IMG/VR virus record: IMGVR_UViG_2913177423_000007 | Direction: 5' to 3' (one strand) | Origin: a virus | Taxonomy: Duplodnaviria; Heunggongvirae; Uroviricota; Caudoviricetes | Length of the DNA: 4,940 nucleotides | Part shown: positions 898 through 4,604 of the stretch, in pieces | Layout: each line of letters opens with the position of its first letter | Position numbering within the stretch: the first letter of the stretch is position 1 | Made by a program: the position numbers and the translations under genes | The notes under the pieces: model-generated | Database searches by the model: none | What the model was told of the DNA's origin: nothing | The model's input: the letters and a program-made list of their open reading frames with translations, nothing else

Positions 898-3273
898 ATG
901 GCAGTACAGATTTCAGGTGTGCTGAAAGATGGTGCGGGAAAACCAATACAGAACTGCACTATTCAACTGAAGGCAAAGCGTAACAGCACCACGGTACTGG
1001 TGAACACGGTGGCCTCTGAAAATCCTGATGAAGCCGGGCGTTACAGCATGGATGTTGAGTATGGCCAGTACAGCGTCACCCTGTTGGTTGAAGGTTTTCC
1101 GCCTTCACATGCCGGGACCATTACCGTCTATGAAGGTTCCAGACCAGGTACGCTGAATGATTTTCTCGGTGCCATGACGGAAGAGGATGTCATGCCGGAG
1201 GCATTGCGTCGTTTTGAGGAAATGGTGGAAGAAGCGGCACGCAACGCCGAAGCCGCCTCTCAGAGCGCAGCGGCGGCAAAGAAATCCGAAACTGCAGCGG
1301 CTTCATCGAAGAACGCGGCGAAAACCTCAGAAACGAATGCAGCTAACAGCGCACAGGCGGCAGCGTCCTCGCAGACTGCATCGGCAAACTCCGCGACAGC
1401 AGCCAAAAAATCAGAAACCAACGCGAAAAACAGCGAGACAGCCGCAAAGACGAGCGAAACCAACGCAAAGTCCAGCCAGACGGCAGCGAAAACCAGCGAA
1501 ACGAATGCCAAAGCCAGTGAAACTGCGGCGAAAAGCAGTCAGGATGCAGCAGCTGAAAGCGAGAGTGCGGCGGCCGGTTCTGCGACTTCAGCAGCCGGAT
1601 CAGCAACTGCTGCGGCTAACAGCCAGAAAGCTGCGAAGACGAGCGAAACTAACGCAAAGTCCAGCCAGACGGCAGCGAAGATCAGCGAAACGAATGCTAA
1701 AGCCAGTGAAACTGCGGCGAAAAGCAGTCAGGATGCAGCGGCCCAAAGCGAGAGTGCCGCAGCTGGTTCTGCAAGTGCGGCTGCTGCTTCTGCCACTGCA
1801 GCAGCCAACAGTCAAAAAGCAGCAAAAACCAGTGAAAACAACGCAAAGGCGAGCGAGACTGCGGCGGCTAACTCGGCGAAAGCATCCGCTGCAAGCCAGA
1901 CGGCTGCAAAAGCAAGTGAAGACGCAGCCAGAGAGTATGCAAGCCAGGCTGCGGAGCCGTATAAACAAGTTTTGCAGCCGCTTCCCGATGTGTGGATACC
2001 GTTTAACGATTCACTGGATATGCTTGCTGGCTTTTCGCCTGGTTATAAGCAAATAACTGTAGGTTATGATGTTATTAAAATGCCATCCGATAAGGTTGTT
2101 AGCTTCAAACGCGCATCAGGTGCAACATACATTAATAAATCAGGAGTATTAACCGTTGCTGAAGTTGACGAACCGCGATTTGAACGAGAAGGTTTGCTGA
2201 TTGAAGGACAAAGAACCAACTATCATCTTAATTCACTTACACCATCTAAGTGGGGAGCTACAACAAGTGTAACTATAACAGAAAGTGGTGTTGATGAGTT
2301 TGGCTTTACTTATGGGCGGTTTCAAATAAAGGACGAAAAAATTGGGACAAATACGACAATGAATATCGCTGCGGTTTCAGGAGGAAGAGGTGTCGATGTT
2401 ACTGGAACTGAAAAGTATGTTACAACATCATGTCGTGTAAAAAGCGATAGTGCTAATATACAATGTCGTATAAGATTTGAAAGATATGACGGGTCCGCAT
2501 ATTTTTATCTGGCAGATGCATATCTTAATATAACAGATATGTCCATTAGAAAAACGGGAGGAGGGGCTGCAAGAATAACCGCCCGAGCGGAGAAAGAATC
2601 TAATGGATGGATTTATTTCGAGGTTACATATCAATCTGAAGCTATTGATAATATGGTTGGCTCTCAGATCCAAATTGCTCCACCTGTTTCACCTGGAACT
2701 TATTTGGGCGGGGAATATTTGGATGTTACGACACCACAATTTGAAGGCGGCTCATGCGCATCATCTTTTATCATTTCCGATACAGTTGCATCAACGCGAG
2801 CAAGCGATATTGTTACATTGCCTTGCAAAAATAACATGACCAGCAAACCTTTAACCTGCATGGTTGAAGTGAATAAAAATTGGTCTATAGCACCAAATTC
2901 CGCGCCTAGAATTTATGATATAACAGGATTTAAAACAAAAGACGACGCTTTTGTTTTTGCATTCAGAAATACAGCAGGTAGTGTAGGAACTCCATATGTT
3001 CAATTTGGTAATCCAATATCATTTCCACCTGGAAATTACCCAAGAAAGATTATCGCTGTATATAGAATAAAAAGCGATGGCAAGTTTCAGGCTGGCTGCA
3101 ATGGGGTTTTATCAACACCAGCATCAACAACGTGGAAGAGTGTTAATGGTGCTACAGGTATAAGGATTGGAGGTCAGACTACAGCCGGCTTACGTCATTT
3201 ATTTGGTCATATCAGGAATTTTAGAATATGGCATAAAGAATTAACCGATGCGCAAATGGGAGAGGTAATATAA
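898..3273 (+). CDS. stf: Side tail fibre protein, 791 aa: lambda Stf-like N-terminal region, Ala/Ser/Thr/Lys-rich repetitive shaft, divergent AT-rich C-terminal distal region
   Basis: The N-terminus MAVQISGVLKDGAGKPIQNCTIQLKAKRNSTTV...GRYSMDVEYGQYSV...GFPPSHAGTITVYE...PGTLNDFL closely matches my recollection of lambda Stf (MAVKISGVLKDGTGKPVQNCTIQLKARRNSTT...). The following KTSETNA(K/R)SS repeats are also as in lambda Stf. ATG at 898 is preferred over the track's GTG at 892 because GGAG at 889-892 gives a 5-nt spacer. Stop is TAA at 3271-3273. Confidence 0.9.
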   Translation: MAVQISGVLKDGAGKPIQNCTIQLKAKRNSTTVLVNTVASENPDEAGRYSMDVEYGQYSVTLLVEGFPPSHAGTITVYEGSRPGTLNDFLGAMTEEDVMPEALRRFEEMVEEAARNAEAASQSAAAAKKSETAAASSKNAAKTSETNAANSAQAAASSQTASANSATAAKKSETNAKNSETAAKTSETNAKSSQTAAKTSETNAKASETAAKSSQDAAAESESAAAGSATSAAGSATAAANSQKAAKTSETNAKSSQTAAKISETNAKASETAAKSSQDAAAQSESAAAGSASAAAASATAAANSQKAAKTSENNAKASETAAANSAKASAASQTAAKASEDAAREYASQAAEPYKQVLQPLPDVWIPFNDSLDMLAGFSPGYKQITVGYDVIKMPSDKVVSFKRASGATYINKSGVLTVAEVDEPRFEREGLLIEGQRTNYHLNSLTPSKWGATTSVTITESGVDEFGFTYGRFQIKDEKIGTNTTMNIAAVSGGRGVDVTGTEKYVTTSCRVKSDSANIQCRIRFERYDGSAYFYLADAYLNITDMSIRKTGGGAARITARAEKESNGWIYFEVTYQSEAIDNMVGSQIQIAPPVSPGTYLGGEYLDVTTPQFEGGSCASSFIISDTVASTRASDIVTLPCKNNMTSKPLTCMVEVNKNWSIAPNSAPRIYDITGFKTKDDAFVFAFRNTAGSVGTPYVQFGNPISFPPGNYPRKIIAVYRIKSDGKFQAGCNGVLSTPASTTWKSVNGATGIRIGGQTTAGLRHLFGHIRNFRIWHKELTDAQMGEVI
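1260..1930 (+). repeat. Low-complexity coding repeat region (the Stf shaft) with roughly 7/14-residue periodicity
   Basis: Translation is dominated by reiterated motifs such as KTSETNAKSSQTAA, KTSETNAKASETAA and KSSQDAAAESESAA. The reverse strand stays open here only because of GCN-rich codons. Confidence 0.8.
1441..1818 (+). repeat. In-frame tandem duplication, 2 x 189 bp (63 codons each): copy 1 at 1441-1629, copy 2 at 1630-1818, with a degenerate partial third copy from 1819 to about 1866
   Basis: Direct alignment in the sequence: gccgcaaagacgagcgaaaccaacgcaaagtccagccagacggcagcgaa... at 1441 against gctgcgaagacgagcgaaactaacgcaaagtccagccagacggcagcgaa... at 1630. The first ~110 nt of each copy are near-identical. 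Differences are mostly synonymous third-position changes. Confidence 0.85.
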
Positions 3274-3554
3274 TGCGAGATTTAATTATCAAATTCACAG
3301 ACAAGGCCGACTTTTCGGCCTTTATGGATAGCATTGGTTATTATGATGACGAGATGATGCAGAACGATGTTCTCATTGATGTAATAGGTGACGTATACAA
3401 AGAAACAGGCGAACTTACTGAAGATGGCGAGCCGGTATGTGTTAAGGAAGACGGATATTTTGTAAACGTGCGCATCATTAATGATTCGCAAATATCGTCA
3501 TTATTCGATGAATACGCGGTTGCTGTTGAGCATCAACTTCGTGGCTGGATGTGA
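3273..3554 (+). CDS. Hypothetical small acidic protein, 93 aa, translationally coupled to stf; function unknown
   Basis: Its ATG at 3273-3275 overlaps the stf stop TAA at 3271-3273 (TAATG). GGGAGAGG at 3258-3265 is a Shine-Dalgarno sequence 7 nt upstream. The protein is Asp/Glu-rich with no predicted transmembrane segment. I recognise no family and see no resemblance to lambda Tfa. Confidence 0.6.
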   Translation: MRDLIIKFTDKADFSAFMDSIGYYDDEMMQNDVLIDVIGDVYKETGELTEDGEPVCVKEDGYFVNVRIINDSQISSLFDEYAVAVEHQLRGWM

Positions 3555-3563
3555 GGAAGAAAA

Positions 3564-4604
3564 ATGGCTACATCGACAGTAATTCCTGATGACATCAAAA
3601 CGCTAAAATCCGATGTTAGCAAATTAAAAAACGATCAAGGAAGCTACGTAACAAAATCATATGTAGACAGCAAAAATGAAACCGTTAATGACTGGTCTGC
3701 TGCATGGTATCAGCAGGTACTGCCAACTAGCGGAGCTATATTTGGGCGAAAACTTCGCTCAACTCACAGGACGGCAGGTGTTGAGGATGCGTATTGCGAA
3801 CTATACCTTAAAAAATGGATAGACAGCCCAGGGAACGCAATGGCGCGCCTTAACCTGAACGATAACGGTGAAAATATTTGCTGGGATTTTACCAACCTTT
3901 ACGGCGGAACAATGATCTTCCCTGGTACTTCAGGTTATCTGAAAATGGGGAACTGTCTCATGTCGTATGGTGTGCGGGGAAGTAACGCGCTTATTAAGTT
4001 TGATAATACAGACACATTACAAATCAAATACGCTAATCATGGGTCAACCATGACATTAAACACACAGGGAACCGCTCACGCTGGCGTAACAACTCGACTA
4101 TGGGGCAATTCTAGCCGTCCGGTTGTTTATGAAGTTGGCGTAGATGAGGCTCTGTATATGTTCTACGCACAGAAAACTACCAGCAATACCTACGAATTAA
4201 CGGTTAACGGCGCGTGCAATGCAAGTGCATTTAATCAAGGCTCTGACCGGGATCTGAAAGACAACATTCAGGTGATCGATAATGCAACTGACCGCATCCG
4301 TAAAATGAACGGCTATACATACACGCTTAAAGAAAACGGTATGCCCTATGCTGGTGTCATTGCACAGGAAGCTCTGGAAGCCATCCCCGAAGCCGTAGGG
4401 TCTATGATGAAATATCCAGACGGTGGGAGTGGATTAGATGGAGAAGAAGGTGAACGGTATTACACTGTAGATTATTCTGGTGTTACTGGCTTGCTTGTTC
4501 AGGTAGCCAGAGAGTCAGACGACAGAATAACAGCACTGGAAGAAGAAAACGCAGAATTAAGACAAAGGTTATCTGCAATTGAGGCGGCGCTTGCGTCTAA
4601 ATAA
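3564..4604 (+). CDS. Short tail fibre/tailspike-like protein, 346 aa, with a C-terminal peptidase S74-type intramolecular chaperone autoproteolytic domain
   Basis: ATG at 3564 has AGGA at 3554-3557 six nt upstream. The C-terminal region reads ...NQG-SDRDLKDNIQVIDNATDRIRKMNGYTYTLKENGMPYAGVIAQEALEAIPEAV...RITALEEENAELRQRLSAIEAALASK. This matches the S-D-x-R-L-K ... GxIAQEλ..λPEAV signature of the chaperone domain of phage K1F endosialidase and T5 L-shaped tail fibre, and ends in a coiled-coil-like tail. Stop is TAA at 4602-4604. Confidence 0.8.
   Translation: MATSTVIPDDIKTLKSDVSKLKNDQGSYVTKSYVDSKNETVNDWSAAWYQQVLPTSGAIFGRKLRSTHRTAGVEDAYCELYLKKWIDSPGNAMARLNLNDNGENICWDFTNLYGGTMIFPGTSGYLKMGNCLMSYGVRGSNALIKFDNTDTLQIKYANHGSTMTLNTQGTAHAGVTTRLWGNSSRPVVYEVGVDEALYMFYAQKTTSNTYELTVNGACNASAFNQGSDRDLKDNIQVIDNATDRIRKMNGYTYTLKENGMPYAGVIAQEALEAIPEAVGSMMKYPDGGSGLDGEEGERYYTVDYSGVTGLLVQVARESDDRITALEEENAELRQRLSAIEAALASK
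4242..4601 (+). other. Predicted S74 intramolecular chaperone domain (residues 227-346), with putative catalytic Ser227 (nt 4242-4244) and Lys232 (nt 4257-4259)
   Basis: SDRDLK is encoded by tct gac cgg gat ctg aaa at 4242-4259, with the Ser-to-Lys spacing of five residues recalled for the endosialidase dyad. The downstream GVIAQEALEAIPEAV block fits the family. Self-cleavage would leave a mature protein of about 226 residues. Confidence 0.65.

Follow-up and report, generated by a model that had tools for sequence, protein, structure and literature searches.

An in-frame tandem duplication of nine heptads in a lambdoid side tail fibre shaft predates the sampled alleles and only rarely changes in copy number

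In phage lambda, residues 102–393 of gpStf form a trimeric proximal coiled coil (PMC12617516). The PCoil of E. coli prophage fibres is trimeric and alpha-helical as well, and it has already been published that PCoil lengths vary among proteins in multiples of seven residues (Ghosh et al., 2012; PMC3368898). The fibre analysed here resembles both. As in the PCoil proteins, an Ala/Ser-rich, low-complexity heptad shaft comes directly after PF08400 (PMC3368898); as in Ur-lambda gpStf, a homologous collar (collar domain, PDB 9e7m/9mgh) is followed by a long, here predicted, coiled-coil shaft, and the gene lies downstream of J (PMC12617516). The distal parts differ. In the PCoil proteins collagen-like domains and PfC come next (PMC3368898), whereas the module here is non-collagen and GTA_spike_fiber-like. 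In lambda there are a hinge, a gp37-like distal domain and Tfa, whereas in the window the fibre ends in another distal part and other genes lie downstream. The duplication of a 63-residue shaft unit, its age, gene conversion between its units and a series of one-, two- and three-copy alleles are not described in PMC3368898, and we found no earlier description of a 63-codon shaft duplication in the literature searched.

The window, a stretch of 4,940 nucleotides of viral DNA (Caudoviricetes; IMG/VR record IMGVR_UViG_2913177423_000007), carries a prophage gene for a side tail fibre (Stf-type) on its forward strand at 898–3273. The 791-aa product is identical to WP_130205076.1 from Escherichia sp. 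E14S1 (exact protein look-up) and is spanned as a whole by a match to phrog_1419. Its residues 1–131 are a PF08400 Phage_tail_N domain (E = 6.6e-67), the collar domain, and residues 1–94 match the N-terminal domain of Ur-lambda Stf (PDB 9e7m, E = 8.5e-49). The 3' end of gene J (tail tip/host specificity; 1–837, + strand), with the C-terminal domains PF09327 and PF12421, lies upstream, the position expected of a lambdoid stf. Homologous loci are annotated in the order gpJ, lom, fibre; unlike in Ur-lambda, no lom gene separates J from stf in the window. Downstream (3273–4604, + strand) are a 93-aa ORF (phrog_1361) and a second fibre of 346 aa with a Peptidase_S74 intramolecular chaperone domain. 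The C-terminal part of the Stf-type protein matches NF048003 (GTA_spike_fiber), and neither Tfa nor a gp37-like Pfam domain was found when forward-strand ORFs of the window were compared with Pfam and PHROGs. Since these lambda-type matches are missing and the C-terminal part and downstream genes are different, the gene joins the N-terminal domain and shaft of the Stf family to another distal module. By analogy with lambda (PMC12617516) and EPclA (PMC3368898), the protein would assemble as a trimer on the tail, as a collar.

Behind the N-terminal domain, residues 114–351 (1237–1950, + strand) make up a heptad-repeat shaft predicted to be an alpha-helical coiled coil, the PCoil or proximal coiled coil of Stf. 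It runs through 34 heptads without interruption. The two core positions of the heptad are taken by Ser (position 3) and Ala (position 7), in 32 of the 34 each. An AF2 monomer model has helices at residues 99–225 and 234–358, with pLDDT mostly 80–90, so that homology, heptad pattern and monomer prediction all point to a coiled coil of the kind found after the N-terminal domain in lambdoid Stf proteins. Open reading frames in alternative frames and on the minus strand over the shaft were judged to be composition artefacts. Unique sequences lie on either side of the shaft repeat, for example the pair GAAGAAGCGGCACGCAACGC ... GAGCCGTATAAA.

Within the shaft, two units of 189 nt (63 codons, nine heptads) follow each other head to tail on the + strand with no spacer, unit 1 at 1429–1617 and unit 2 at 1618–1806. 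Tandem Repeats Finder reports the array at 1429–1866 (period 189, 2.3 copies, 83% matches, 0 indels, score 603), together with periods of 21 and 42 in the shaft. A preliminary description of the window had begun the repeat at 1441, which is the same array with its register shifted by 12 nt; 1429, 1441, 1618 and 1807 are all codon starts in the ORF at 898–3273. The in-frame tandem duplication that it proposed is thus borne out, with 162 of 189 nucleotides (85.7%) and 56 of 63 amino acids identical between the units, and exact identical runs of 41 and 29 nt. Unit 1 has a Gly-rich end, AGSATSAAGS, where the shaft might be flexible. The 27 differences comprise 20 synonymous and seven nonsynonymous changes (Nei-Gojobori). 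They are unevenly spread, much as that description had said: 1441–1550 and 1630–1739 differ at six of 110 positions, and the next 79 nt at 21, with divergence at synonymous sites. What it had called a degenerate third copy holds in part. There is a further match to the start of unit 1 at 1807–1866 (+ strand; 20 codons, NSQKAAKTSENNAKASETAA; 77% identity over 60 nt), and identity falls to background beyond it. This segment is another member of a 14-residue AAKTSETNAK sub-repeat family and looks like flanking homology at the duplication junction, not a decayed full copy.

The shaft has an underlying period of 21 nt, and one might ask whether it holds a true duplication at all, or whether heptad periodicity, together with biased codon usage, yields the 189-nt repeat as a by-product. 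The shaft does consist of similar heptads throughout, in keeping with the 21- and 42-nt periods. However, when the shaft is shifted by any of the 24 remaining multiples of 21, identity averages 49.8 ± 5.6% (maximum 61.9%), against 85.7% at offset 189. The repeat exceeds chance because this offset stands at z = 6.4 over the 21-nt background, and an origin in low complexity or chance was rejected on the same comparison. Lambda-like and short-shaft Stf alleles, moreover, have the same heptad character without a large-period repeat; one of them, a lambda-like shaft whose protein match is 59% identical (conserved N-terminal domain included), has no large tandem repeat. The by-product reading is refuted, and we give it practically no credence.

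The duplication is older than the diversification of all sampled alleles. Between the units, pS is 0.45 (dS ~0.68) and pN 0.05, whereas pS is only ~0.11–0.13 when unit 1 is compared with unit 1, or unit 2 with unit 2, across alleles. Among 35 distinct alleles, unit 1 sequences are 96.0% and unit 2 sequences 95.6% identical between alleles, while unit 1 and unit 2 are 84.7% identical within an allele and 84.5% between alleles. A colinear two-copy layout (751/751 nt in one piece, 93–97% identity) is present in ~1003 of 5426 complete E. coli genomes, and also in E. ruysiae and Escherichia sp. E1V33. The recent origin put forward in the preliminary description is contradicted by these values, as the copies are not near-identical. 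With dN/dS at ~0.07, purifying selection keeps the protein sequence of both units. A scan of species-representative genomes returned little beyond Escherichia, mostly lambda-like contamination. As to origin, the most likely event would be an unequal crossover between two copies of the sub-repeat NSxxAAKTSETNAK (14 residues), which would account for the NSQK found at the start of both unit 2 and the partial segment after it. In its nucleotides the junction has by now lost its clean form.

Gene conversion passes sequence between the units over their central ~135 nt, and both ends stay copy-specific. Across the 35 alleles, the differences fixed between the two units are confined to unit positions 7, 11, 18 and 156–174. 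In the zone between, positions 19–155 (1447–1583 in unit 1 and 1636–1772 in unit 2, both + strand), there are none, and 13 polymorphisms are shared between the units where 4.7 are expected (P = 2.7e-5). A haplotype of seven linked variants, NSQVAAAQ, is found in unit 1 of 19 alleles and in unit 2 of four. Divergence along the unit is uneven because conversion is limited to its middle: pS is 0.23 in codons 1–41 and 0.74 in codons 42–63 (Fisher P = 0.001). Codon composition (two-fold against four-fold sites) was rejected as the sole cause of this 5'/3' gradient, since these values are already scaled to synonymous sites. The stretch of identity followed by divergence, taken earlier as a sign of recency, is thus due to gene conversion. 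Concerted evolution, in which units would be more alike within than between alleles, is not seen among these 35 alleles (the 84.7% and 84.5% given above), and because within-allele identity is no higher, conversion is patchy and not homogenising.

Copy number is nearly constant. About 98% of related genomes or alleles have exactly two copies, and clean unit-step changes occur in a small minority, with one- and three-copy alleles both rare at roughly 1–2%. The preliminary description had proposed that equal copy number in all relatives would speak against active length variation; the few unit-step changes go against such uniformity, and the ~98% come close to it. Its statement that the repeat is a recombination substrate giving 63-residue steps with the frame intact is supported on an evolutionary scale by natural one-copy (L081–L084, L292) and three-copy (L089, L210, L211) alleles with chimeric junction units.

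The one-copy alleles come from five complete chromosome records and from the isolated phage IdasGreatGrand (complete genome); two of the records, H106 and H107, coincide in record length and match coordinates, which leaves four to five chromosomes, and these stem from different countries. In E. coli MSB1_4I, CB209, AVS0655 and FFFEB2, as in the phage, the shaft segment should be 562 nt long, where two copies give 751 nt. At 30 diagnostic sites, L081 and L083 show a single switch from unit 1 to unit 2 states, L084 has unit 1 states throughout, and L082 and L292 carry besides a few off-pattern states at sites polymorphic within a unit. Contraction crossovers map to four positions, at unit coordinates 34–89, 91–101 and 117–137 and in the flank. 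The last is that of L084, where the whole of unit 2 was lost through a crossover between its start and the 1807–1866 segment. The one-copy proteins are 728, 731 (annotated 732), 735 and 738 aa long and end in several different C-terminal modules; identical ones occur on 3–14 contigs each, and three share 90%-identity clusters with two-copy proteins that are 63 aa longer (791, 798 and 801 aa). We rejected the idea that they represent the ancestral state before duplication, since they consist of extant unit 1 and then unit 2 states (a few sites polymorphic within a unit aside), have no private divergence and show four switch points.

In the three-copy alleles L089 (WP_021549278.1), L210 and L211, and in the truncated L209, the middle unit consists of unit 2 positions 1 to ~33 joined to unit 1 positions ~90 to 189, the exact reciprocal of the one-copy chimera. 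The middle units of L210 and L211 have no extra mutations, and the L211 protein occurs on five contigs. Every three-copy allele stems from a contig of a draft assembly or a metagenome; in KOEGE 56 the shaft segment should be 940 nt long. Among IMG/VR contigs, a single one carries three copies and at least 120 carry two. Taking contractions and expansions together, crossovers map to 28–89, 34–89, 34–101, 91–101 and 117–137, all within the zone of conversion. On rare occasions, then, unequal recombination between homologous stretches of the central zone costs an allele exactly one unit or gives it exactly one more. With each such step the shaft would become nine heptads, about 9 nm (63 × 0.15 nm), shorter or longer, and heptad phase and reading frame would be left undisturbed. 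Other shaft indels are of –7 (at three different sites), –14, –28 and –49 aa, each a multiple of seven, the –49 deletion (L161) ending in the 1807–1866 segment. Preservation of heptad phase is not absolute, because L088 has a natural deletion of 41 aa.

Taken as a whole, these observations are most probably explained by an old, stably inherited in-frame duplication of nine heptads, with conversion between the units and rare unit-step recombination. The preliminary description had leaned toward a recent duplication that actively expands and contracts through RecA or slippage, which would give fibre-length heterogeneity within populations and a kind of quasi-contingency. One-, two- and three-copy alleles do all exist, the mutation-free chimeric middle units of L210 and L211 imply very recent events, contraction breakpoints are at least four and independent, and the window's 41- and 29-nt identical runs reach or exceed the shortest homology that RecA-dependent exchange requires in E. 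coli. Against this, a divergence of 14% between the units greatly reduces slippage as well as exchange through RecA; unit 1 sequences cluster together across alleles, as do unit 2 sequences, with an inter-unit dS of ~0.68; and the ~1003 two-copy genomes face only four to five with one copy, just as two-copy contigs prevail in IMG/VR. We therefore think active variation improbable. Nor does the repeat resemble a length switch that is programmed or works at high frequency: where such systems rely on frame-shifting simple repeats, a DGR or Gin/Cin-type inversion, the unit here is 189 nt long, 14% diverged and in frame. No reverse transcriptase or invertase was found among the forward-strand ORFs compared with Pfam (five proteins) and PHROGs (four), and the sole inverted repeat is a weak 19-nt pair (79%).

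The copy-number variants could instead be assembly artefacts, collapsed or over-traversed repeats, two copies being effectively invariant in nature. Many homologous database proteins are labelled partial, a sign that short-read assemblies often break in the fibre gene, and an E. coli genome holds a median of two related loci and up to 10–11. With 62–68 identical nt between units, the middle units of L210 and L211 match an extra loop traversal in an assembly graph, and a collapsed repeat could explain some of the one-copy contigs in short-read drafts. No three-copy allele is among the best 60 complete-genome matches. All of the best 30 (synthetic three-copy query) and best 60 (L211 query) complete E. 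coli matches listed have two copies, in a ranking that is blind to copy number, as joined BLAST pieces give two-copy alleles 100% coverage. One-copy alleles, however, are found in complete chromosomes and in a complete phage genome, with four different breakpoints and several C-terminal modules among them, and the same one-copy protein can recur on as many as 14 contigs. In L089, nine extra sites set the middle unit apart from the allele's own unit 1, so that the middle unit is no simple re-traversal, and collapse of a loop cannot yield the heptad-scale deletions of –7, –28 and –49. An artefact is accordingly very unlikely in our judgement. On the reading of an old and stable duplication, a change in copy number would arise now and then as a side effect of the homology between repeats, while stabilising selection acts on the length of the shaft, since ~98% of alleles retain two copies.

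Structural proteins elsewhere change length in comparable ways: the number of pseudo-repeats varies in the adenovirus fibre shaft, and the phage lambda tape-measure protein gpH has in-frame length mutants. As there, the present shaft changes by whole structural repeats through in-frame duplication or deletion, keeping frame and fold. The folds (triple beta-spiral, tape measure) and repeat units are different, and functional effects are experimentally established in those cases. Mosaic tail fibres of enterobacterial phages, in work attributed to Haggard-Ljungquist (1992) and Sandmeier (1994), reportedly exchange modules at conserved linker or repeat sequences. What passes between phages in those mosaics is receptor-binding modules, whereas here it is the number of units within one shaft that changes. 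In related phages, homology breaks off within the repeat region or at its borders (window positions 1476, 1785, 1429 and 1618), and for this reason we regard shaft repeats as joints for module exchange too.

A repeat can thus be old even where one sequence by itself makes it look fresh, as patchy gene conversion can mimic the signature of a recent duplication. The fibre gene is also a spot where short-read assemblies break or may miscount repeats. One could imagine unit number (one, two or three times nine heptads, ~9 nm per step) as an adaptive knob that sets side-fibre reach relative to the central J fibre and to the thickness of O-antigen or capsule, with conversion keeping the locus competent for recombination, in other words a selected "length-ruler" cassette and not a passive repeat; we consider this unlikely. 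Occasional loss or gain of one copy by recombination is ordinary for repetitive phage fibre genes. Although its practical value is modest, the natural series of shafts with one, two and three units could guide the choice of safe in-frame junctions when Stf chimeras are engineered, and its 63-residue steps provide a tool for relating side-fibre length to adsorption in lambdoid phages.

The side-tail-fibre gene stf (898-3273, plus strand) carries a 189-nt in-frame tandem repeat in the part that encodes the shaft, as the preliminary description had stated. TRF places it at 1429-1866 with a period of 189, 2.3 copies and 0 indels. Unit 1 (1429-1617) and unit 2 (1618-1806) share 85.7% nucleotide and 88.9% amino acid identity, and their 27 differences comprise 20 synonymous and 7 nonsynonymous changes (Nei-Gojobori counting). 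A 21-nt (heptad) period underlies the shaft; over the self-identity at other multiples of 21 (49.8 +/- 5.6%), offset 189 has a z of 6.4 and is therefore a genuine outlier. The degenerate third copy proposed earlier amounts to a 60-nt match of 77% identity after unit 2, not a full copy, and belongs to a 14-residue AAKTSETNAK sub-repeat family. Lambda-like and short-shaft Stf alleles are without any large tandem repeat; the duplication is thus confined to the present shaft lineage.

Residues 114-351 of Stf comprise 34 heptads without interruption, of which 32 have Ser at position 3 and 32 have Ala at position 7. The 63-residue unit equals nine heptads, which would span ~9 nm of coiled coil. The equivalent region of Ur-lambda, gpStf 102-393, is a trimeric proximal coiled coil (PMC12617516), and in PF08400-bearing E. 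coli prophage fibres the same region is the ‘PCoil’ domain (PMC3368898). An AF2 monomer model has helix over aa 99-225 and 234-358, its sole interruption being the Gly-rich AGSATSAAGS with which unit 1 ends (window 1573-1602, Stf aa 226-235); the unit-2 counterpart AGSASAAAAS, with one Gly, remains helical. The interruption could be a flexible point, or merely a fold-back artefact of modeling a monomer.

The duplication had been called recent, a reading that the divergence between its units contradicts. Both units of 42 loci with the colinear two-copy layout were compared, amounting to 35 distinct DNA alleles. Like units compared across alleles are 96.0% (unit 1) and 95.6% (unit 2) identical, whereas unit 1 and unit 2 are 84.7% identical within and 84.5% between alleles. 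By the Nei-Gojobori method, pS between unit 1 and unit 2 is 0.45 (dS 0.68; pN 0.05), against 0.11-0.13 for like units of different alleles. The colinear two-copy layout (751/751 nt, in one piece) occurs at 93-97% identity in ~1003/5426 complete E. coli genomes, and also in E. ruysiae and Escherichia sp. E1V33. Thus, the duplication is older than the diversification of the alleles. Both units are under purifying selection.

Divergence between the units is uneven: the initial 122 nt contain 8 differences and the remaining 67 nt contain 19, and pS is 0.23 for codons 1-41 and 0.74 for codons 42-63 (P = 0.001). Fixed differences across alleles are confined to unit positions 7, 11, 18 and 156-174. 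There are none at positions 19-155, where 13 polymorphisms are common to both units vs 4.7 expected (P = 2.7e-5). Nineteen alleles have the seven-site haplotype NSQVAAAQ in unit 1, and four have it in unit 2 with unit-2-specific sites on either side. Unit 1 of the window has a minority ‘unit-2-like’ haplotype at positions 107-138, and because of this the first 122 nt of its units are the most similar among all alleles (93.4%). The half-identical look of the units thus stems from patchy gene conversion between them, not from recent origin.

Of 120 protein clusters, 8 are single-copy. The isolated phage IdasGreatGrand likewise has one copy. A synthetic one-copy query gave five one-piece 562-nt matches in complete chromosomes, two of these records having identical length and match coordinates. 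Unit-1 and unit-2 states were mapped at 30 diagnostic sites. Loci L081 and L083 show one switch from unit-1 to unit-2 states, and L082 and L292 a like pattern, bar a few sites polymorphic within a unit; switches in one-copy alleles fall at positions 34-89, 91-101 or 117-137. L084 has unit-1 states at all diagnostic sites, with unit 1 entire and unit 2 lost via flanking NSQKAAKTSETNAK homology. The C-terminal modules of the one-copy alleles are of several kinds, and each exact protein is found on 3-14 contigs.

A search for three motifs at ~189-nt spacing recovered three contigs from metagenomes and a single one from IMG/VR, where two-motif matches number at least 120. In all cases the middle unit joins a unit-2 5' end to a unit-1 3' end, i.e., the reciprocal product. 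These contigs are drafts, and an exact chimeric middle unit could also result if a loop in the assembly graph were traversed once too often; the chimera has no extra mutations in L210 and L211 and nine extra differences in L089. No three-copy allele was present among the 60 best complete-genome matches to a three-copy query. Other natural indels are -7 aa (in three different places), -14, -28 and -49 aa. Among complete-genome alleles ~98% are two-copy, and all non-canonical lengths together account for ~1.8%. The proposed mechanism, expansion and contraction of the repeat in 63-residue steps, is supported on an evolutionary scale by the one-copy and reciprocal three-copy chimeric alleles. All natural indels observed are multiples of seven save one: L088 (NZ_AP022298.1) lacks 41 residues of the upstream shaft, which would break the heptad register by one residue.

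The window is the tail-fibre region of a lambdoid prophage. The 3' end of J (1-837; PF09327, PF12421) is followed by a terminator-like hairpin (858-877) with a T-run and by stf, whose 791-aa product has PF08400 at aa 1-131 and matches phrog_1419 over its full length. WP_130205076.1 (Escherichia sp. E14S1) is an exact match of this protein, and residues 1-94 match the Ur-lambda Stf collar domain (PDB 9e7m, E 8.5e-49). No lom lies between J (stop 837) and stf (start 898) in the window; an Ail/Lom gene occupies this interval in L081-L084 and L292. Downstream of stf are a 93-aa ORF (phrog_1361, function not assigned) and a second fibre protein of 346 aa that bears the intramolecular chaperone domain Peptidase_S74, both within 3273-4604, and a small membrane ORF. 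The C-terminal half of Stf (aa 434-635, window 2197-2802) matches NF048003, a GTA head-spike-fibre domain, and not a gp37-like tip, which together with the 93-aa ORF and S74 fibre suggests that two proteins make up a side fibre that lacks Tfa and may be branched.

The majority of the database proteins homologous to Stf (P0001-P0120) are annotated ‘partial’, related loci number a median of 2 and a maximum of 10-11 per E. coli genome, and short-read assemblies are evidently very often broken in this gene. Lambda-type stf also appears on low-coverage contigs in genome assemblies of unrelated taxa, including Leeuwenhoekiella, Shewanella, Oceanobacillus, Pseudomonas and Kitasatospora (L215-L221, L224, L229, L230), at 57-60% identity to the query and with an identical alignment in most; this looks like contamination by phage lambda control DNA. 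Long alternative open frames cross the shaft, namely a 289-aa Arg/Lys-rich ORF (+2 frame, 1187-2056) and three minus-strand ORFs (1260-1968). We rejected them as real genes and regard them as composition artefacts of GC-rich heptad codons. In L086 a minus-strand shaft ORF is annotated ‘hypothetical protein’ by PGAP, and in L188 a frameshift leads into an alternative frame that is read without encountering a stop.

Among forward-strand ORFs compared with Pfam (five proteins) and PHROGs (four), none matched a reverse transcriptase or an invertase, and an inverted-repeat search of the window gave nothing meaningful; programmed diversification is thus excluded. Homology to other phages ends inside the repeat units (mEp460 at 1476, PhiR11_1 at 1785) or begins at their edges (PhiR46_1 at 1429, 2G7b at 1618), and the heptad shaft is therefore also a joint for swapping distal modules; other boundaries lie at 2223-2234, ~90 codons beyond the shaft. 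The 189-nt shaft duplication is a well-behaved example of an already known kind of feature.
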